DNA of 64,000 nt, from positions 1,209-65,208 of the forward strand of contig CALXLD010000001.1 of assembly GCA_944389105.1 (NCBI GenBank), read 5' to 3'. The notes beneath the pieces were generated by a model. It was not told the DNA's origin and did not search any database. It was given only the letters and a program-made list of their open reading frames with translations. A program made the translations under genes and the position numbers. This DNA is from an uncultured Spirochaetaceae bacterium (GTDB taxonomy: Bacteria; Spirochaetota; Spirochaetia; Sphaerochaetales; Sphaerochaetaceae). Positions 50,221-59,420 of this stretch are shown here, one piece after another; position 1 is the first letter of the stretch; every line of letters begins with the position of its first letter.

Positions 50221-51591
50221 ATGAGAGTTGTAATCCTTGGAGCTGGACGACGGGGTCTTCGTCTTGCGCGACACCTGATAGAGGAGAGGAAGTCAGTTGT
50301 CTTTCTTGATAGCAGCAGCGATAGATGCAACGCAGCTACTGCTAAGCTGGATTGCCTTGCGCTCTGCGGCTCTGCAACTGATATCGATATGCTTAAAGAA
50401 GCTGGCGCAGAAGATGCAGAAGCTGTAATTGCCGTCACCGACAGCGATGAGACGAATCTTGTAGCATGCGGTATAGTTTCTTCCTCTTTCAGACATGTGG
50501 GCATGACAATTGCAGCTATAAGGAGCATAAACTACCTTGGTACAGGGCTTGATGGCGATGTCCTTGGTATTACCCATATAGTCAATCCGGAGCAGGAGGC
50601 AGCAGAACGTATCGTAGGTATCATAGATACCGGTCTTTTCCGTGATTTCGAGTATTTCCCATATGCAGGTTTTGTCATGTTCTCAAGGAAAATTGAGAGC
50701 GGCAATCTTTTTGAAGGACGTACTCTTGCCCAGATAAGAAGGGAGATCCCGGGGCGCTTCGTTGTAATCGGGATTAGACGCAGGGGCAATGTCTTCACTC
50801 CATCAGGTGATACACTGATCCACGAAGGTGATGAGATAGGTCTTATCGTGGATGATGATGAATCCAGCGATATCTATGGACGCCTTTCGGATGTCCATCA
50901 GTCCCATATGAAGAGGATAATACTTGTAGGAGGAACAAGGATTGCCAAGTTTGCTTTGCTTTCCATGTCGGATGACCTGAGGCGGCGGGTAATGCTTGTT
51001 GAGAAGGACAGTGCAGTATGCGAGAAATTCGCGAGGGAATTTCCAGAAGTCATTGTTCTCAATGGGGCAATATCAGATGAGGCATTCTGGGAGGAGGAGA
51101 GGCTGTATCAATCGGATTTCCTTGCCGCAGTGACCGACAATGACGAGCTGAACATCATCGCTGCAAGCTATGCAAAGAGGCTAGGTACAAAGAGGTCTGT
51201 TGCGCTTATCAAGACAAACAACAGCTATATCCCGCTGGCAGAGGCTATGGATATAGATGGTGTCATTTCCACGACCAATACTACAGTTGATGCCATAGTG
51301 CGCTTTCTTCGAAGCGATAGGATACAGAGCCTTCATACGCTGTTTGACGGACAGCTTGAGGTCTATGAGTATCAGGTACAGCCAGGTTTCAGGTACATAG
51401 GAAAAAAACTCAGGGATGTTCCTTTCGGAGGGAAAATCACGATAGCAGGCGTGAGAAAGAAGGACGGCGATGATAACTATATCCCAGATGGAAACTATCT
51501 TCTTGAGGAAGGGGATACAATCCTTCTTGCCGCCGCCCATTCAAACTATGCTTATGTCGAGAAGCTCATGACTGCCAGAAAAGAATCATAA
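50221..51591 (+). CDS. trkA: Trk system potassium uptake protein TrkA (tandem RCK/NAD-binding)
   Basis: MRVVILGAGRRGLRLA, a second Rossmann motif (ILVGGTRIAKF), and two TrkA_C-like segments. Confidence 0.9.
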   Translation: MRVVILGAGRRGLRLARHLIEERKSVVFLDSSSDRCNAATAKLDCLALCGSATDIDMLKEAGAEDAEAVIAVTDSDETNLVACGIVSSSFRHVGMTIAAIRSINYLGTGLDGDVLGITHIVNPEQEAAERIVGIIDTGLFRDFEYFPYAGFVMFSRKIESGNLFEGRTLAQIRREIPGRFVVIGIRRRGNVFTPSGDTLIHEGDEIGLIVDDDESSDIYGRLSDVHQSHMKRIILVGGTRIAKFALLSMSDDLRRRVMLVEKDSAVCEKFAREFPEVIVLNGAISDEAFWEEERLYQSDFLAAVTDNDELNIIAASYAKRLGTKRSVALIKTNNSYIPLAEAMDIDGVISTTNTTVDAIVRFLRSDRIQSLHTLFDGQLEVYEYQVQPGFRYIGKKLRDVPFGGKITIAGVRKKDGDDNYIPDGNYLLEEGDTILLAAAHSNYAYVEKLMTARKES

Positions 51592-53031
51592 GCTGTCTCC
51601 GAAATCTCTCCTGAATGCTGCTATGAGCTTTTCCGGCCATGGTGATACCGGTTCAAGCCGCCCGAAGAAGAATCTCAGCGATGAAGGTTCCTCCACGAAT
51701 CGGAGGCCGCCGATCAGATTCCTGTTCTCATAAAGCCATGTGATTCTGTCTATCGCGTATTTTACCTGGGAAAGCGTAAATACCCTTCGTGGCATTGCCA
51801 GTCTCAGAAGCTCAACGGCTGCAAGATGCTCCGAGCCATCCGGTTCTCTCTGTTCGGATATCGTGCCCCTTTCCATTCCTCTTATCCCTCCGGCTATATA
51901 GACAGCGGCTGCCAATGCACCTGCCGGATATTCCTCCTGCCTTACATGCGGGATGAAACGGCTTGCATCAAGATGGCAGCCAAGACCACCTGGAGGTGTT
52001 ACCACCGGTACGTTGTTCCTTATCAGTTCATCGGTCATGTACTTTATGAAGAGCGGTCCCTGGGAAATGACATCCATATCCATGGTTTCATCAAGGCCGA
52101 CCGTCATTGCTTCCATTTCCCTGACACTCATTCCGCCATATGTGAGGAAGCCTTCGAACATAGGGACAAGTTCCCTCATCCTTAGATAGAGTTCCTTGCT
52201 GTGGATTGATATTCCGCCACCGCGTGCAAAGCCCAGCTTCCGCCCAGAGAAATAGATGATATCCATTTTCTCCGATATCCTTCTCGTGATCTCCCTGAGC
52301 GATAGGTCCTTCGCATATTCCTCCCTTGTCTTTATGAAATAGAGATTATCCTGCAGAAGGCTTGCATCCAGCACCGTCAGTACGCCGTATCGGTGGGCGA
52401 TATCCGCACTCTTCTCGATATTCTCCAGCGATAAAGGCTGTCCTCCAATGAGGTTCGTCCCGGCTTCTATCCTTATGAACGGGATTATATCGTGTTTTTC
52501 TGCAAGGAGCCTTTCAAGCTTATCCAGATCGAAATTGCCTTTAAATGGATAATTGCTTTCAATCTTTACCCCTTCATCTACCAATAGCTCTTCAACGATT
52601 CCTCCAAGCCTTGTGATATGTGCTTTTGTTGTCGTGAAGTGATAGTTCATCGGGATTATCGAACCTGGTCTGACGAATGTCATCGCAATTATGTTTTCAG
52701 CAGCTCTTCCCTGATGAGATGGCAGAAAGTATTCAGTTCCGAATATTTCCTTAAGCTTTTCTGTGAGCCTGGTGAATGTTGCGCTGCCTGCATAACTGTC
52801 ATCTGCAATCATCATTGAGGCAAGCTGTCTGTCGCTCATTGCATTTACGCCGCTGTCGGTGAGCATATCGAGGAATATGTCTTTGTTGAACAGCAGGAAA
52901 GTGTTGAATCCTGCTTCGGATATTGCTTCTGCTCTCCTTTCTACAGGTTGCAGATCGAGTTTCTGGACAATACGGACCTTATGCAGCTCCAGTGGAAGCT
53001 GCTCCCCGTTGTGGAAATGAATTTCTGCCAT
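51586..53031 (-). CDS. beta-eliminating lyase (tryptophanase / tyrosine phenol-lyase family, PLP-dependent)
   Basis: VRIVQKL...RAEAISEAGFNTFLLFNKDIFLDMLTDSGVNAMSDRQLASMM aligns with the TnaA/TPL N-terminus. FSGRKLG lies at the PLP-lysine position. I cannot distinguish Trp from Tyr specificity by eye. Confidence 0.85.
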   Translation of the reverse strand: MAEIHFHNGEQLPLELHKVRIVQKLDLQPVERRAEAISEAGFNTFLLFNKDIFLDMLTDSGVNAMSDRQLASMMIADDSYAGSATFTRLTEKLKEIFGTEYFLPSHQGRAAENIIAMTFVRPGSIIPMNYHFTTTKAHITRLGGIVEELLVDEGVKIESNYPFKGNFDLDKLERLLAEKHDIIPFIRIEAGTNLIGGQPLSLENIEKSADIAHRYGVLTVLDASLLQDNLYFIKTREEYAKDLSLREITRRISEKMDIIYFSGRKLGFARGGGISIHSKELYLRMRELVPMFEGFLTYGGMSVREMEAMTVGLDETMDMDVISQGPLFIKYMTDELIRNNVPVVTPPGGLGCHLDASRFIPHVRQEEYPAGALAAAVYIAGGIRGMERGTISEQREPDGSEHLAAVELLRLAMPRRVFTLSQVKYAIDRITWLYENRNLIGGLRFVEEPSSLRFFFGRLEPVSPWPEKLIAAFRRDFGDSL

Positions 53032-53123: not shown

Positions 53124-53687
53124 TCAGTTTGTTTTGTATGCAATCTGAGGATCTAGTCCGACAGACCTGAATGCCATATCGATAATGAGGTAGGTTATCC
53201 TATCCACGCTCATCTGGAATCCCTTTTCTATCCATTCCCTTATTATCCCGACAACCCCGTTTATTACAAAGATGAATGACATTTCCTTGTCATCGATGTT
53301 CCTGAAATTCGCGAGCTCATCATACTTATCCATTACCGCAGCTATAATCTGCTCGCCGAATGATCTGTCTGCTGAGGAAGTAAGGAGTATGTAGAAGGTG
53401 TTCCTGTTTTTCCTGATATATTCCATAAGCTGCTTCATTGAAAGAAAGAACGGCTTCTGATCAGTTGGCTTATAATCAGGGAGTTGTGAGATTATATCCT
53501 GCTCGATTTCTTCGATGAGATCCCTCGGGCATGTATAATAGGCATAGAAAGTGCTTCTGTTCACTGCCGCTTTCTGGCAGATTGCCTTGATTGTTATGTT
53601 CTCAAAGGATGTCGTAGTCAGAAGTTCTATGAGTGCTTCTTTCAGATATCCTTTTGTTCTTATTACCCTGGGATTATCGTTTTTCAC
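53124..53687 (-). CDS. TetR/AcrR family transcriptional regulator
   Basis: The N-terminal HTH is TIKAICQKAAVNRSTFYAYY, in a 187-aa protein. Confidence 0.85.
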   Translation of the reverse strand: MKNDNPRVIRTKGYLKEALIELLTTTSFENITIKAICQKAAVNRSTFYAYYTCPRDLIEEIEQDIISQLPDYKPTDQKPFFLSMKQLMEYIRKNRNTFYILLTSSADRSFGEQIIAAVMDKYDELANFRNIDDKEMSFIFVINGVVGIIREWIEKGFQMSVDRITYLIIDMAFRSVGLDPQIAYKTN

Positions 53688-53784
53688 AGAAAAAATGCTA
53701 GCCTATGACTTAAAAACCGTCAATTAATGCTTCCTGCGATATGTATGTGTTTTGCGTGTATATTTAAAAGAGTTTGTCAAGGAC

Positions 53785-53812
53785 TTCCAAAAGCGCAGTT
53801 TCATGATAAAAT
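53785..53812 (+). promoter_or_regulatory. putative promoter (TTCCAA-16 nt-TGaTAAAAT extended -10) driving the riboswitch-led operon
   Basis: TTCCAA at 53785-53790, TG at 53804-53805, and TAAAAT at 53807-53812. The predicted TSS near 53819 coincides with the 5' end of the P1 helix. Confidence 0.5.
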
Positions 53813-53817
53813 ACAAG

Positions 53818-53883
53818 TGATGTATAAGCCCCTGATAAGGAGGGGTGTCTCTACCGGCTGCCGTAAAGAGCCTAGCTACATCA
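53818..53883 (+). promoter_or_regulatory. purine (guanine-type) riboswitch-like aptamer
   Basis: P1 is TGATGTA (53818-24) paired with TACATCA (53877-83), and J1/2 is TAA. P2 is GCCCCT/AGGGGT with L2 GATAAGG (consensus GAUAUGG). J2/3 is GTCTCTAC (consensus GUUUCUAC), and L3 is CCGTAAA (an exact match to the consensus). A C at 53876 precedes P1', which is the guanine-type C74 position. SD GGAGGG at 53884-89 abuts P1'. Confidence 0.65.
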
Positions 53884-53897
53884 GGAGGGTTCTGTGT

Positions 53898-55151
53898 ATG
53901 GCGGCATTTGCGATTCATGGTGATATCATATGGACTGAGGAACCTGGAGCTTTCAGATACAATGAAGGCGGGTATCTCGTCATTTCCGATGGAAAGGTTG
54001 TCAGCGTATCTGATGTGAGACCTGACTGTGAGATAGTGGAAACCGATTCATCCCTTGTCATCCCAGGTCTGACGGATCTGCATCTTCATGCTCCCCAGTA
54101 TGCATTTGCTGGTCTGTATATGGATGAGGAGCTGCTGGACTGGCTCAATCATCATACATTCCCCGAGGAGGGAAAGTATTCCGATCCTGTCTATGCCGGC
54201 AAAGCATATTCAGCATTTGCTGATGATCTGCAGCGTACAGCGACTACAAGGGTGGCTGTCTTCGGGACAATACATACGGATTCAACTCTGCTTTTAATGG
54301 ATAAGCTGGAAAAAGCAGGAGTTGCCGGTTATGTGGGAAAGGTGAATATGGACCGGAATTCGCCGGATTATCTTACAGAGAATACTGATGCCTCAGTTGC
54401 TGAGACAGAGAGATTTATTTCCATGTCCAGCAGGTTCAGCAGCATAAAGCCGATAATAACACCGCGTTTCATACCATCCTGTACAGATAATCTCATGCAG
54501 TCTCTTGGGAGGATTGCTTATCAGCAGGATCTTCCGGTGCAGTCCCATCTTGATGAGAATCTTTCTGAAGTAGAGTGGGTTAAGGAGCTGTGCCCATGGG
54601 CATCGAATTATGCAGATGCATATAATCATTATTCCATGCTTGGACCCAAAAGCATAATGGCCCACTGTGTCTGGCTGAATGATGATGAAATAAAGCTTCT
54701 CCGTGAGAGCGGAACATATATAGCGCATTCCCCCTCGTCGAACACGAATCTCTCATCGGGAATCGCTCCGATAAGGAAATACCTTGAAGCTGGACTGAAA
54801 ATCGGGTTAGCCACTGATGTTGCCGGCGGTTCCTCTCTTTCGATGTTCAGGATGATTCAGGATGCAATAGCTGTAAGCAAGCTGAGATGGCGCTTCGATG
54901 CTTCAGGCGGCAAGGCGCTGAAATTCTCCGAAGCATTCTACCTCGCTTCTAAAGGAGGAGGCTCATTCTTCGGTACCACCGGTTCATTTGAAAAAGGGTA
55001 TGATGCGGATGTTGTCGTCATCGATGATTCAAGGCAGTCAACGATACTCCTTAAGTCCCTTTCCGTTCCGGAACGTCTTGAATTCTACACATACAGGCAT
55101 CCTGATGAGTTCATAAAAGCAAAATACGTCAAGGGAAGACGTGTTCTTTAA
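53898..55151 (+). CDS. guanine deaminase-like amidohydrolase
   Basis: Metal motifs are PGLTDLHLHAPQ (HxH), QSHLDEN, MAHCVWL, and GLATDVAGG with its Asp. This is the amidohydrolase TIM-barrel fold. SD AGGAGGG precedes ATG 53898. The ORF-track start at 53727 would translate through the promoter and riboswitch. Confidence 0.8.
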   Translation: MAAFAIHGDIIWTEEPGAFRYNEGGYLVISDGKVVSVSDVRPDCEIVETDSSLVIPGLTDLHLHAPQYAFAGLYMDEELLDWLNHHTFPEEGKYSDPVYAGKAYSAFADDLQRTATTRVAVFGTIHTDSTLLLMDKLEKAGVAGYVGKVNMDRNSPDYLTENTDASVAETERFISMSSRFSSIKPIITPRFIPSCTDNLMQSLGRIAYQQDLPVQSHLDENLSEVEWVKELCPWASNYADAYNHYSMLGPKSIMAHCVWLNDDEIKLLRESGTYIAHSPSSNTNLSSGIAPIRKYLEAGLKIGLATDVAGGSSLSMFRMIQDAIAVSKLRWRFDASGGKALKFSEAFYLASKGGGSFFGTTGSFEKGYDADVVVIDDSRQSTILLKSLSVPERLEFYTYRHPDEFIKAKYVKGRRVL

Positions 55152-55153
55152 GA

Positions 55154-55429
55154 ATGGCTATAATCATGGTCATGGAAAATACACAGGAAAACCGCATTGC
55201 GGTAATTGGGATAATCGTTGAGGACAAGGCGATGGCGGAGAGCGTCAATACTCTTCTTCACCAGTACAGTGACTATGTGATCGGAAGGATGGGGCTTCCT
55301 TACCGTGAGCGCAACATGAGTATTATCAGCGTTGTTGTAGATGCTCCTTCTGATATCATATCTGCGCTTTCTGGAAAGCTTGGACGTCTTCCGGGCGTAT
55401 CCAGTCAGGCCCTTTATACAAAGGCGTGA
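55154..55429 (+). CDS. TM1266-family iron-only hydrogenase system regulator (ACT / NikR-C-like small protein)
   Basis: 91 aa. RIAVIGIIVED...LLHQYSDYVIGRMGLPYRERNMSIISVVVDAPSDIISALSGKLGRLPGVS matches my memory of this family. It lies 2 nt after the deaminase stop and overlaps the hydE start. Confidence 0.75.
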   Translation: MAIIMVMENTQENRIAVIGIIVEDKAMAESVNTLLHQYSDYVIGRMGLPYRERNMSIISVVVDAPSDIISALSGKLGRLPGVSSQALYTKA

Positions 55430-56454
55430 ACGAGCTTTTAGATAAGCTTATCGAGACGAGGCATCTCCTTCTTGATGAATGGGAGATGCTTATCTCCTCC
55501 GATACTGATGACGAGGAGCTTTTTTCTCTTGCAAGGGAAAAGAGGGATTCTGTGTATGGCAGGAAGGTTTTTCTCCGTGCCCTTATAGAGTTTACATCAA
55601 TATGCCGCAATGACTGCAGGTACTGCGGCCTTAGGCGTTCTAACAGGAATGCAGGCCGCTATAGGCTGACAGAGGAAGAGATTCTCTCCGCTGTCGATAA
55701 AGGCCATGATGCCGGATTCAGGTCATTTGTGCTTCAGGGCGGAGAGGACGGATTCTTTACCGCGGAAAGGATGGTCCGGATCATAAAGGATATAAAGCAG
55801 TCCTTTCCTGATTCCGCTCTGACAATAAGCATCGGTGAACTTGATGATGATAGCTACCTTGCAATGAAGAACTCTGGTGCTGATAGGTATCTGCTGCGTC
55901 ACGAGACTGCAGATCCTGTACATTACAGAATACTGCATCCTGAACCGATGTCACTGGAGAACAGGAAACGCTGTCTCCGTTCTCTGAAAAGGTTCGGTTA
56001 TCAGACAGGAGCAGGAATGATGGTTGGTTCCCCAGGTTCTTCTTTCCATACTCTTGCTGAGGATATGGTATTCATATCTGAGCTTGAACCTGAGATGGTG
56101 GGTATAGGACCTTTCATACCTCACCATGACACGCCGATGAAAGGGGAGAAGACAGGGAGCGTTGAGCTTACCCTTCGTATGCTGGCGCTTACGAGGCTGC
56201 AGAATCCTCATGTTCTTCTTCCTTCTACCACAGCACTCGGAACGGCTGACGGAAATGGCCAGATAAAAGGTCTGGAAGCTGGGGCTAATGTTATTATGCC
56301 GAATATTACCCCTTTATATGTAAGATCTAAATATCTTCTGTATGATAATAAGAAGATTTCAGGCTATGAAGCAGCTGAAAACCTTGAGAAAATTAAATCA
56401 GAACTTATTGAAGCTGGATATGAACCATCACTGACCCGTGGTGATTACATATAA
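55426..56454 (+). CDS. hydE: [FeFe]-hydrogenase H-cluster radical SAM maturase HydE
   Basis: The CRNDCRYCGLRRSN CX3CX2C motif sits in a HydE/BioB-like context (ALIEFTSIC..., GEDGF, GAGMMVG). The start is GTG, overlapping the upstream TGA. Confidence 0.85.
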   Translation: MNELLDKLIETRHLLLDEWEMLISSDTDDEELFSLAREKRDSVYGRKVFLRALIEFTSICRNDCRYCGLRRSNRNAGRYRLTEEEILSAVDKGHDAGFRSFVLQGGEDGFFTAERMVRIIKDIKQSFPDSALTISIGELDDDSYLAMKNSGADRYLLRHETADPVHYRILHPEPMSLENRKRCLRSLKRFGYQTGAGMMVGSPGSSFHTLAEDMVFISELEPEMVGIGPFIPHHDTPMKGEKTGSVELTLRMLALTRLQNPHVLLPSTTALGTADGNGQIKGLEAGANVIMPNITPLYVRSKYLLYDNKKISGYEAAENLEKIKSELIEAGYEPSLTRGDYI

Positions 56455-56507
56455 TCAGAATTATATTTTGATATGAAAATGATTTTCTTCTTTTGAATAT
56501 CATATTA

Positions 56508-56525
56508 TTGCAAACATATTTGCAA
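56508..56525. promoter_or_regulatory. 18-bp perfect palindrome TTGCAAA-CATA-TTTGCAA (candidate operator, Rex-box geometry)
   Basis: A perfect 7-4-7 inverted repeat lies in the AT-rich hydE-hydG spacer. An extra TTGCAAA half-site lies at 56568-56574. Confidence 0.3.
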
Positions 56526-56760
56526 TATTTTATATATCGTATATATACAAAATTCATATTATAAAAATTGCAAATAATTATATTTATCATTTAATAATTT
56601 GACTGTATACAGATAGAATATCAATGGATATTGATTGATACATAGATATTGGTAATTGAATCTGATTTCTGGTATCATTTTCTCATCCGAACGAGGCTAT
56701 GGCGACGGGAGGAGTATCTAACTAACTGAAGGGGAAGATGACTGACCCGAAGGAAGAATT

Positions 56761-58179
56761 ATGTACGACAGATATTCGATGGTTGCGGATGATTTCATCG
56801 ATGATGGTGAAATCAATGAGACACTTCGCTTTGCTGATGAGAACAAGCACAATAGGGAACTTATTTCATCGATAATCGAAAAAGCCAGGAATAGGAAGGG
56901 GCTTGAGCACAGAGAAGCTTCCGTTCTCCTTGCCTGTGATATACCGGATCTCAATGATGAAATCTATAAGCTTGCAGGGGAAATCAAGAAGGATTTCTAC
57001 GGGGATAGGATCGTCATGTTCGCTCCTCTTTATCTCTCCAATTACTGTGTGAATGGCTGCGTATACTGTCCCTACCATGCGAAGAACAAGCATATTGCCA
57101 GAAAGAAGCTGACACAGGCAGAGATCGTTGCGGAAGTCACGGCATTGCAGGATATGGGACATAAGCGGCTTGCACTGGAAACTGGGGAGGATCCGGTGAA
57201 CTGCCCGATTGATTATGTACTTGAGTCAATAAAGACAATCTATTCAATCAAGCATAAAAATGGAGCGATAAGGCGCGTTAATGTAAATATCGCGGCAACT
57301 ACTGTTGAGAACTACCGCAAGCTCAAGGAAGCGGGAATCGGGACATACATACTTTTCCAGGAGACTTACCACAAGGCAAGCTATCTTGAGCTTCACCCAA
57401 CAGGACCGAAGCATGATTATAACTATCATACGGAAGCCATGGACAGGGCAATGGAAGGCGGCATTGATGATGTTGGCTGCGGTGTTCTATTCGGTCTTGA
57501 ACGATATCGATATGAATTTGCCGGATTGCTGATGCATGCTGAGCACCTGGAGGCTGTTCATGGTGTCGGGCCGCATACGATTTCGGTTCCTCGGATAAAG
57601 CATGCTGATGATATAGATCCGAGTGCATTCGACAATGGTATTGATGACGAGACTTTTCTCAAGATCATTGCCTGCATAAGAATCGCCGTACCATACACAG
57701 GCATGATCATTTCAACGCGTGAAAGCAAGAGCGTCAGGGAAAAAGCGCTGAGATTGGGAATCTCACAGATATCAGGCGGGTCAAGGACTAGTGTCGGTGG
57801 CTATGTTGTTCCTGAAAGCGATGATGACAGCTCTGCGCAGTTTGATGTAAGTGATAACCGCTCTCTTGATGAGGTTGTGAAATGGCTGATGGATCTCGGC
57901 TACGTCCCGTCCTTCTGTACTGCGTGCTATAGAGAGGGCAGGACAGGGGATAGATTCATGTCGCTATGCAAATCAGGGCAGATACAGAACTGCTGTCTGC
58001 CAAATGCGCTCATGACGCTCAAGGAGTACCTGATGGATTATGCTTCTCCGGAAACCAGGGCTGTTGGTGAAAAAGTAATTCAGGAGCAGCTTCAGGAAAT
58101 CCCGAATCCGAGGACAAGGGAAGTGACTGGACGCCATATTGCGGATATCGAGAATGGAGAGAGGGATTTCCGTTTCTGA
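56761..58179 (+). CDS. hydG: [FeFe]-hydrogenase H-cluster radical SAM maturase HydG (tyrosine lyase)
   Basis: SNYCVNGCVYCPYH CX3CX2C motif. The C-terminal auxiliary cluster motif is FCTACYREGRTGDRFMSLCKSG. The length is 472 aa. Confidence 0.9.
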   Translation: MYDRYSMVADDFIDDGEINETLRFADENKHNRELISSIIEKARNRKGLEHREASVLLACDIPDLNDEIYKLAGEIKKDFYGDRIVMFAPLYLSNYCVNGCVYCPYHAKNKHIARKKLTQAEIVAEVTALQDMGHKRLALETGEDPVNCPIDYVLESIKTIYSIKHKNGAIRRVNVNIAATTVENYRKLKEAGIGTYILFQETYHKASYLELHPTGPKHDYNYHTEAMDRAMEGGIDDVGCGVLFGLERYRYEFAGLLMHAEHLEAVHGVGPHTISVPRIKHADDIDPSAFDNGIDDETFLKIIACIRIAVPYTGMIISTRESKSVREKALRLGISQISGGSRTSVGGYVVPESDDDSSAQFDVSDNRSLDEVVKWLMDLGYVPSFCTACYREGRTGDRFMSLCKSGQIQNCCLPNALMTLKEYLMDYASPETRAVGEKVIQEQLQEIPNPRTREVTGRHIADIENGERDFRF

Positions 58180-58193
58180 TTTAGGGTAGAAGA

Positions 58194-59420
58194 ATGAATG
58201 CAGCACCATCTTCCGAAAGAATCCATATTTCATTTTTCGGCATGAGAAATGCCGGAAAGTCCAGTGTGATGAATAGGGTTATAGGGCAGGAGCTTTCTAT
58301 AGTCTCCAGCAAGAAAGGTACGACTACCGATCCTGTGAGAAAGTCAATGGAACTTCTTCCAATCGGTCCTGTTGTCATGATTGATACTCCTGGTCTGGAT
58401 GACGAAGGAGAGCTTGGCGAACTCAGAATAAGGAAAGCGAAGCGGGAACTTGTAAGGACGGATGCTGCTGTTGTAGTAGCTGAAGCAGGTGAAAGACTGA
58501 ATGATTTACTGATAAACCTGATAAATACAATCCGTAATAGGAATATTCCTTATGTAATATGTGTCAATAAAATTGATACCGCGGCTAATACTGAAGGAAT
58601 CCTGAAGGACCTGGAGAATCTTGGGATAGGCAGAGAATCCATTTCCCTTGTCAGTGCAATTACCGGAGAAGGCATAAACGATCTCAAAAAGAGCATTGCA
58701 AAAGCCATAGGGACAGAAGAAGCAAGACCTATAGTACGGGATCTTTTCTCTCCAGGGGACACTGTGATGCTGGTAATCCCAGTTGACAAGGCTGCTCCAA
58801 AAGGAAGACTTATCCTGCCGCAGCAGCAAAGCATAAGAGACATACTTGATGGTGATGGAAGAGTCCTTGCTGTAAAGGAAGGGGATGTTGCTTCTTCCTT
58901 GTCGCTCCTTTCAGCGCCGCCAAGACTTGTCATAACAGACAGCCAGGCTTTCGGTACCGTTGCAAAGCAGGTTCCGGAGAGCATCCCGCTGACATCATTT
59001 TCCATCCTCTTTGCCCGATATAAAGGCAATCTTGAAAGTGCTGTGAAGGGGATTTCACAGCTGAGAAAGCTTAAGGGAGGGGAGAGCATACTCATTTCTG
59101 AAGGATGCACCCATCACAGGCAGTGCGGGGATATCGGGACGGTGAAGATACCGCGATGGATAAAGGAGTACACAGGAAAGGAGTTTGAATACTCCTTCTC
59201 TTCAGGAACTGAATTCACGGAGAATCCGGAAAAGTACTCCCTGATAATCCACTGCGGTGGATGCATGCTTACGGAAAGGGAGATGAGATACCGCTACAGA
59301 GAAGCGGAGGAGAGCGGTACTGCAATTACCAATTACGGTATACTTATTGCAGCTGTCCACGGGATACTTCCCCGTTCGCTCTCCCTTTTCCCTGATATTC
59401 TTTCCTATCTGCAGCGGTAG
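58194..59420 (+). CDS. hydF: [FeFe]-hydrogenase H-cluster maturation GTPase HydF
   Basis: G1 is FGMRNAGKSS, G3 is DTPG, and G4 is NKID. The C-terminal cluster ligands are EGCTHH...IIHCGGCM. Confidence 0.9.
   Translation: MNAAPSSERIHISFFGMRNAGKSSVMNRVIGQELSIVSSKKGTTTDPVRKSMELLPIGPVVMIDTPGLDDEGELGELRIRKAKRELVRTDAAVVVAEAGERLNDLLINLINTIRNRNIPYVICVNKIDTAANTEGILKDLENLGIGRESISLVSAITGEGINDLKKSIAKAIGTEEARPIVRDLFSPGDTVMLVIPVDKAAPKGRLILPQQQSIRDILDGDGRVLAVKEGDVASSLSLLSAPPRLVITDSQAFGTVAKQVPESIPLTSFSILFARYKGNLESAVKGISQLRKLKGGESILISEGCTHHRQCGDIGTVKIPRWIKEYTGKEFEYSFSSGTEFTENPEKYSLIIHCGGCMLTEREMRYRYREAEESGTAITNYGILIAAVHGILPRSLSLFPDILSYLQR

Follow-up and report, generated by a model that had tools for sequence, protein, structure and literature searches.

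A compact guanine-type riboswitch predicted to act as a translational ON switch for a guanine deaminase gene in an uncultured spirochaete

In a 64,000-nucleotide stretch of contig CALXLD010000001.1 (assembly GCA_944389105.1) from an uncultured Spirochaetaceae bacterium, hereafter the window, the leader of a guanine-deaminase-like gene resembles a purine riboswitch with an irregular junction. The locus raises the questions of whether this element belongs to the purine riboswitch family, which purine it would sense, and in which direction it would control the gene. An earlier, sequence-only reading had described a three-way junction of the purine-riboswitch type, with a non-canonical J3/1, fused directly to the Shine-Dalgarno sequence (SD) of the gene. 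Our favored account, to which we give a probability of roughly 80%, is that of a guanine-sensing riboswitch (RF00167, guanine-I type) acting as a translational ON switch for guanine deaminase. Family membership, conservation, covariation, gene identity, and alternative folds were computed; from these we infer the ligand, the switching direction, the kinetic regime, and the tuning of affinity.

The whole 64-kb window was scanned against Rfam 15 at gathering thresholds. RF00167 (Purine riboswitch) was the sole match, at 53800-53898 on the + strand, with 50.1 bits against a gathering threshold of 37. The match spans the full model (positions 1-102), with an E-value of 1.8e-5 for the whole window and 4.7e-8 in a local scan, and it bears out the earlier assignment to the purine riboswitches. 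A permissive Rfam scan of 53760-53930 again returned RF00167 and no competing family; the additional hits, Transposase-1 RNA (14 bits versus 42.8) and the serC leader (10.6 versus 35), fell below gathering. At the level of sequence and covariance model, the element is confirmed as a genuine purine-riboswitch aptamer, well beyond chance. Its parts are as follows, all on the + strand.

53818-53883: purine (guanine-type) riboswitch aptamer core, from the RF00167 alignment, fold, and covariation
53818-53824 with 53877-53883: P1, 7 bp
53823-53827: UAUAA at the P1/J1-2 boundary
53825-53827: J1/2, UAA
53828-53833 with 53841-53846: P2, 6 bp including one G-U
53834-53840: L2, GAUAAGG
53847-53854: J2/3, GUCUCUAC, 8 nucleotides (nt)
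53855-53860 with 53868-53873: P3, in which only GGCU/AGCC (53856-59/53869-72) is Watson-Crick
53861-53867: L3, CCGUAAA
53874-53876: J3/1, A-G-C (inserted A, G73, C74)
53876: specificity nucleotide C53876, the equivalent of C74 of the Bacillus subtilis xpt aptamer, directly 5' of P1' (Rfam alignment)

The UAUAA, both loops, J2/3, and the C preceding P1' all lie where they had been placed by eye, and the 6-bp P2, the P3 with four Watson-Crick pairs, and the single extra J3/1 nucleotide are real. The reading of J3/1 as AGC required one amendment: the extra nucleotide stands, but it lies between P3 and position 73 (U53873/A53874), and position 73 is a G rather than an A. The Watson-Crick core of P3 is flanked by C-U and G-G mismatches. 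Equivalents of the pocket residues U22, U47, U51, A52, and C74 are all present (U53825, U53848, U53852, A53853, and C53876). The kissing bases G53839-G53840 of L2 and C53861-C53862 of L3 are likewise present and are kept in relatives, the kissing contact itself being predicted. An isolated 68-nt aptamer segment folds as exactly this three-way junction at -20.5 kcal/mol, a stability that is unexceptional (z = -1.26).

The nearest genome relatives of the deaminase come from uncultured Spirochaetales and Spirochaetaceae metagenome-assembled genomes (MAGs), which makes a gut spirochaete the probable host. By Rfam, this aptamer immediately precedes the deaminase homologue in spirochaete loci L002-L005 and in Firmicute loci L014, L015, and L017, and we built a custom covariance model from these and the window aptamer (eight sequences). 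With this model, the aptamer was found upstream of a deaminase homologue at 37 of 80 genome loci and, among the matches listed, at 31 of 80 metagenome loci. The metagenome protein matches listed are all at or below 55% identity; close relatives were instead taken from exact-protein look-ups. In each of the 12 close relatives so recovered (L162-L173), the aptamer precedes the deaminase.

Among 59 distinct deaminase-linked aptamers, 92% of alignment cells are paired and 18 of 20 pairs show double changes. None of 500 shuffles did as well, except that the count of further pair types was reached by 4 of the 500, and controls in which the alignment was slid brought pairing down to 30-42%. These alignments were fitted to the model, which favors the structure; the family is independently established. 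Compensatory changes, on which the sequence-only reading had proposed to judge the leader, are thus found in P1-P3 of homologous leaders. In the spirochaete clade (12 sequences), five pairs covary in each of P1 and P2, while pairing in P3 reaches just 73.6%, with 10 of the 12 lacking the basal pair. J2/3 is always the 8-nt GUNUCUAC across the 59 aptamers, C74 is present in 59/59, and the top P1 pairs U53823-A53878 (U20-A76) and A53824-U53877 (A21-U75) are equally invariant (59/59). Pocket and kissing-loop bases do not vary across divergent relatives whose proteins are 56-79% identical.

This conservation bears on whether the element could be a decaying or non-regulatory relic, an aptamer that binds no ligand in a leader whose hairpin sets low constitutive translation. 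The short, mismatched P3 with its incomplete pairing across the clade, the ordinary z-score of the isolated aptamer, and the loss of binding caused by A73G in the xpt context (PMC2018637) would all fit such decay. However, an invariant pocket and invariant kissing bases over such protein divergence, compensatory changes that keep P1 and P2 within the clade, and an Rfam score well over gathering amount to conservation unexpected for a relic, and we regard this account as highly improbable.

The distribution of the unit is uneven. No purine aptamer was detected upstream of the homologues at L006, L007, L040, and L070, even at E <= 1. These are MAG homologues with 48-58% protein identity, three labelled Spirochaetaceae or Spirochaetales and one Sphaerochaetaceae. 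Because these four homologues have no detectable aptamer, the riboswitch-deaminase unit is patchy in the phylum, a pattern compatible with horizontal acquisition from Firmicutes.

The controlled gene and its expression signals were delineated as follows.

53785-53812, + strand: putative promoter, with -35-like TTCCAA at 53785-90, TG at 53804-05, and -10 TAAAAT at 53807-12
53884-53889, + strand: SD, GGAGGG, abutting the 3' side of P1 and 8 nt before the ATG at 53898
53898-55151, + strand: guanine deaminase, amidohydrolase-type, 417 amino acids (aa) (TIGR02967, PDB 2i9u)

The protein scores 363 bits on the TIGR02967 guanine deaminase model, under the cutoff of 375, and 121 bits on the 8-oxoguanine deaminase model, for which the cutoff is 532. 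Its best PDB match, at E = 1.3e-112, is 2i9u, whose deposited title is 'Cytosine/guanine deaminase related protein'; the next matches, human and yeast chains among them, bear the name guanine deaminase, and the HxH..Q, PRF, HxxE, and D motifs align with 2i9u. The TIGR02967 and 2i9u matches, together with an SD that abuts P1, uphold the description of a guanine-deaminase-like gene with the leader fused to its SD. The frame of the mechanically called open reading frame (ORF) is open from 53727, and the ATG at 53898 lies 8 nt past GGAGGG. The mechanical ORF of the window and the public gene calls for P0003 (442 aa) and P0010 (422 aa) begin ahead of the real ATG and run through the riboswitch (window 53727-53897; L164 1501-1575; L172 1501-1512). 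Such starts are likely mis-annotated start codons.

A TGnTAnnnT motif lies 5-10 nt before P1 in 12 of 12 clade members, and several also have a CTTCCA -35-like motif. A simple promoter/terminator scanner called neither a promoter nor a terminator on the + strand of 53300-54300, and the argument for a promoter therefore rests on conservation. The extended -10 noted earlier accordingly holds as a motif conserved in 12/12, but it was not called by the consensus promoter scanner. The putative promoter would place the transcription start at ~53817-53820, at the first P1 nucleotides. Because the motif sits so close to P1, the leader (~80 nt) is scarcely more than the aptamer, the SD, an 8-nt spacer, and the AUG, and so has no room for a terminator.

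We folded the leader together with 18 nt of the ORF in a nearest-neighbor model. The minimum-free-energy (MFE) structure, at -35.8 kcal/mol, keeps P2, breaks P3, and contains the following elements.

53857-53905, + strand: predicted OFF-state sequestrator hairpin, mutually exclusive with P3, L3, and P1 (MFE fold)
53857-65 with 53897-905: outer stem of the sequestrator, GCUGCCGUA (P3 5' strand plus L3) with UAUGGCGGC (start codon plus codons 2-3)
53867-73 with 53887-93: inner stem of the sequestrator, AGAGCCU (P3 3' strand) with GGGUUCU (3' part of the SD)

The sequestrator hairpin alone has a predicted energy of -25 kcal/mol (z = -3.86; 0 of 200 shuffles as stable), with outer-stem pair probabilities of 0.87-1.0. 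In the free ensemble, the SD is paired with p = 0.99-1.0 at G53887-89, 0.99 at G53884, 0.08 at G53885, and 0.0 at A53886. Enforcing the aptamer gives a best energy of -23.7 kcal/mol and lowers SD pairing to p = 0.29-0.53, leaving the SD and AUG largely open. When growing transcripts are folded, the aptamer is the MFE structure up to 53888 and the sequestrator takes over from 53903 onward. The same sequestrator design appears in the MFE structures of eight related leaders, L162, L164, L165, L166, L169, L171, and L172 among them, and the outer stem across relatives carries three one-sided substitutions (U-G/U-A, C-G/U-G, and G-C/G-U) with pairing always kept. Other clade members are predicted to form different sequestering helices, namely the P1 5' strand against the AUG in L005 and L173 and a local CUCC...GGAGG hairpin overlapping the 3' side of P1 in L003 and L004; these always compete with aptamer strands.

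The leader folds thus support the geometry of a translational ON switch, as the sequence-only reading had proposed, but not the pairing through which it was thought to operate. There, with the same aptamer and the same ON direction, the P2 5' strand GCCCCUGA (53828-35) pairs with UCAGGAGGG (53881-89), breaking P2 and P1. A helix of 7 bp with one bulge does exist at these positions and is part of the MFE structure of transcripts ending at 53891-53900, before the start-codon region is made; moreover, the P2 5' strands of the clade (CCUC, CCCCU) resemble an anti-SD, and the MFE structure of L173 pairs this strand with the SD. By itself, however, the helix is worth -6.1 kcal/mol, the best structure containing it reaches -27.4 kcal/mol against -35.8 for the MFE, and its pair probabilities are ~0 in the full leader. 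As a transient fold it is only 1-2 kcal/mol better than the aptamer, and 8 of 9 close relatives keep P2 in their MFE structures. We therefore consider it quite unlikely that this pairing underlies regulation; the helix may be a fleeting intermediate rather than the main OFF state.

Our preferred reading, a guanine-responsive ON switch that acts through the sequestrator, can be laid out as a sequence of events. Transcription would start at the first P1 nucleotides, and the aptamer would be complete ~20 nt before the competing strand is made. Guanine, pairing in Watson-Crick fashion with C53876 and enclosed by the U22, U47, and U51 equivalents, would lock P1, P3, and the L2-L3 kiss, so that the SD and AUG would stay single-stranded and a 30S subunit could load. 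Without guanine, a P3 that would be weak by design (four Watson-Crick pairs, mismatched ends, and no 54-72 closing pair) would serve as the point of invasion. Its 5' strand, together with L3, would then capture the start codon and codons 2-3 and its 3' strand the SD, burying the whole ribosome-binding site in the -25 kcal/mol hairpin and leaving P2 intact. The nearest-neighbor model favors the OFF fold by ~12 kcal/mol, so the switching decision is probably kinetic and co-transcriptional. ON logic suits a catabolic or detoxifying enzyme.

Expression platforms differ among the Firmicute homologues. Their MFE folds contain an extended helix that runs into a U-tract and in which the P3 5' strand and L3 once more form the left arm; these folds and U-tracts suggest ON switches that operate through a terminator. 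The terminator scanner called none in the Firmicute leaders L043 and L054, since the predicted terminator helices hold large internal structures. In the Firmicute loci L014, L058, and L081, where the aptamer lies ~70 nt before the ATG, the start region AUGAAUGAAUCUAU is paired in the predicted fold to UAUAGGUUCAU, the J1/2-P2 5' segment. These loci appear to use translational control, which would add a third kind of expression platform to this aptamer-gene pair.

The identity of the ligand turns on the junction. Position 74 is the specificity base (PMC9295807, PMC10556655), and a C there indicates the guanine/hypoxanthine/xanthine class and not adenine. The adenine class was rejected on this ground, the base being C rather than U here and C in 59/59 related aptamers. 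Three altered-specificity classes were also considered and set aside. The 8-oxoguanine class is marked by deletion of U47 in J2/3 and an exclusive association with 8-oxoguanine deaminase genes (PMC10556655); in the window, J2/3 has its full 8 nt with U47 in place, and the gene reaches 121 of the 532 bits set by the corresponding deaminase model. Xanthine-II aptamers carry U51G, a 2-nt J2/3 insertion, and a J3/1 insertion (PMC9295807); here U51 is kept and J2/3 has no insertion. Guanine-II aptamers have a 1-nt J2/3 insertion, a 3-4 nt J3/1 insertion, and PRT genes (PMC9295807, PMC12445698), compared with an 8-nt J2/3, a single extra J3/1 nucleotide, and a deaminase gene in the window. Because the changes that define these classes are absent, the sole shared trait being the G at the A73-equivalent position, guanine is most likely the ligand, probably with reduced affinity.

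In place of the canonical A73 and the closed P3 base (C54-G72), the window aptamer has G73, a preceding insert, and a C-U/A mismatch at 54-72. The extra nucleotide between P3 and position 73 is shared with the sub-clade L162, L164, L169, and L173. Position 73 is G in most of the clade, with canonical GAC in L171 and UAC in L003. At this position the 59 deaminase-linked aptamers show A 25 times, U and G 12 times each, and C 10 times (raw counts, without phylogenetic correction), and 9 of the 59 contain an extra J3/1 nucleotide. Position 73 is known as the least conserved position of the core, ~90% A in guanine aptamers, and a natural G73 occurs in LM-pbuG (PMC2018637). Substituting A73G in the B. 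subtilis xpt context abolished 2-aminopurine binding (PMC2018637). The closest published parallel in the junction, BH-ssnA, combines an extra nucleotide 5' of position 73 with an unstable P3; it binds guanine with a KD of ~414 nM, versus 4.7 nM for xpt, and shows no response to xanthine, hypoxanthine, or adenine at 1 uM (PMC2018637). The flagged oddities fall within described natural variation, and A73 and C54-G72 are not strictly defining for guanine-I. The earlier caution that the ligand should not be assumed was fair, yet it is probably unnecessary given a guanine-I pocket, the absence of variant-class changes, and the guanine specificity of BH-ssnA. The extra J3/1 nucleotide, G73, and the weak P3 probably lower affinity, such that the enzyme would be induced only at high guanine.

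The same residues allow a different interpretation, in which unpaired C54, the insert, and G73 remodel the roof of the junction toward guanine-II/xanthine-II. The element would then prefer hypoxanthine, xanthine, 2'-deoxyguanosine, or 8-oxoguanine, or would discriminate guanine more sharply from xanthine. Guanine-II and xanthine-II aptamers do resemble it in having a G at the equivalent of A73 and a lengthened J3/1 (PMC12445698), the deaminase-linked set is unusually variable at position 73 and in J3/1 length when set against the ~90% A seen generally, and BH-ssnA shows reduced xanthine and hypoxanthine binding (PMC2018637). Even so, the direct ligand contacts are unchanged, with no insertion in J2/3, U51 not replaced by G, and U47 kept. 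J3/1 also varies freely before orthologous genes within the clade, including the canonical GAC of L171 and the UAC of L003, which points to neutral or affinity-tuning drift rather than a new specificity. Furthermore, the gene is a guanine deaminase and not an 8-oxoguanine deaminase, and the only characterized aptamer with this insertion binds guanine. A change of specificity is unlikely in our estimation.

A related and speculative idea, somewhat less doubtful, is that the spirochaete-clade junction constitutes a distinct low-affinity guanine sensor that strongly rejects xanthine and stands as an evolutionary intermediate between guanine-I and guanine-II. Xanthine is the product of the controlled enzyme. 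If this were true, the variability of position 73 would reflect selection for tuning and not drift. More generally, that variability could reflect tuning of affinity or selectivity in catabolic ON switches.

Several points weigh against a guanine-sensing translational ON switch. The ligand, the transcription start, and regulation itself are read from sequence and predicted folds. The gap between the OFF fold (-35.8 kcal/mol) and the aptamer fold (-23.7 kcal/mol) is large, and the proposal relies on assumed kinetic trapping and on tertiary and ligand energy that lie outside the model. No compensatory double changes were found in the sequestrator outer stem among relatives, and its arms are constrained in other ways too, one by the conserved L3 and the other by Met-Ala-Ala coding. 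In addition, L003-L005 conserve the P3 5' strand GGCUGCC just as well, with start regions that are not complementary to it. As the xpt A73G variant lost binding, a context-dependent tolerance of G73 is assumed here, and the likeness to BH-ssnA is drawn by published description and annotation only, that aptamer also lying upstream of an amidohydrolase-annotated gene.

Comparison with known systems places the element among the guanine-I riboswitches while setting its expression platform apart. Most studied guanine riboswitches are transcriptional OFF switches. The window element shares with B. subtilis xpt-pbuX (guanine-I) the three-way junction, the UAUAA/GUNUCUAC/C74 signature, the GG/CC kissing loops, and a location in the 5' untranslated region of a purine-metabolism gene. 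However, xpt is a transcriptional OFF switch of salvage and uptake genes, whereas the window element has no terminator, is predicted to be a translational ON switch, and precedes a catabolic enzyme. Relative to xpt, it has 1 bp fewer in P2, lacks the closing pair of P3, and carries one inserted nucleotide and a G73 in place of A73.

ON switches are known from adenine riboswitches, with Vibrio vulnificus add acting on translation and B. subtilis pbuE on transcription. The former activates a purine deaminase and the latter an efflux gene, and in both the ligand prevents an alternative helix from consuming aptamer strands. As in add, access to the SD and AUG would be controlled in the window leader. 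In contrast to the window element with its C74, add and pbuE sense adenine through U74. The predicted sequestrator also differs from theirs in being built from the P3 5' strand plus L3 on the left and the start codon itself on the right, and it belongs to a much shorter leader whose SD abuts P1.

The guanine-II, xanthine-II, and 8-oxoguanine classes (PMC9295807, PMC12445698, PMC10556655) are built on the same scaffold and are ON switches of purine salvage or degradation genes. Guanine-II and xanthine-II also have a G at the equivalent of A73 and a lengthened J3/1, as the window element does, while the changes that define each of the three classes are absent from it. By analogy, the specific but weak guanine binding of Bacillus halodurans BH-ssnA (Mulhbacher & Lafontaine 2007, PMC2018637), which resembles the window element in its extra nucleotide 5' of position 73 and its unstable P3, is the behavior expected here. 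The host of BH-ssnA is a Firmicute, unlike that of the window.

Beyond the riboswitch and the deaminase, the downstream genes on the + strand were annotated as follows.

55154-55429, + strand: TM1266-like [FeFe]-hydrogenase-system regulator (NCBIfam TIGR03959/TIGR03956 scan)
55426-56454, + strand: HydE (NCBIfam TIGR03959/TIGR03956 scan)

A 2-nt gap separates the deaminase ORF from the TM1266-like gene, which overlaps HydE by 4 nt, and these two genes are possibly in the same operon as the deaminase. HydG and HydF follow HydE, so that the hyd cluster with the deaminase occupies 53898-59420. Downstream synteny is kept in relatives, the deaminase and TM1266-like pair, often with HydE, being found in L162, L166, L171, and L173. 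The placement of a deaminase next to hydrogenase-maturation genes offers no obvious metabolic link. The radical-SAM enzymes HydE and HydG release 5'-deoxyadenosine, and the deaminase superfamily includes 5'-deoxyadenosine deaminases. Such an activity was rejected as the primary role, given the far higher scores of the guanine deaminase models and 2i9u and the invariance of C74. On the other side lie two divergent neighbors, a TetR-family regulator (53124-53687, - strand) and a gene of the tryptophanase/tyrosine phenol-lyase family (51586-53031, - strand), which adjoin the riboswitch-deaminase unit in most close relatives (L162, L164, L166, L172, and L173). Besides the riboswitch promoter, a TetR operator may lie in the 210-nt intergenic region.

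In Firmicutes, the riboswitch-deaminase unit is followed by xanthine dehydrogenase XdhA, adenine deaminase, or an ORF resembling a purine permease (the last judged by eye, with no family match), a context that is clearly purine-catabolic. Two Firmicute loci, L065 (3900-3971) and L045 (1881-1952), have another purine aptamer shortly after the deaminase gene, in which J3/1 reads GCGC (extra nucleotide plus G73). This second aptamer presumably controls the next gene, which does not figure among the ORFs of at least 100 aa.

The element is no new class of regulator, and standard Rfam annotation finds it. In the open-access literature, we found no explicit description of a guanine riboswitch controlling guanine deaminase (guaD) and no description of purine riboswitches in spirochaetes. 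Purine aptamers are widely paired with guanine deaminase in gut Clostridia, and the pairing extends to relatives labelled as Spirochaetales or Spirochaetaceae MAGs, and their J3/1 variants form a natural set for studying how affinity and selectivity are tuned. Within this group, the window leader is predicted to be a very compact instance from nature of a guanine-responsive switch that turns translation on. Its architecture suggests that weakness in P3 can serve a purpose, providing the entry for strand invasion by the ribosome-binding site.

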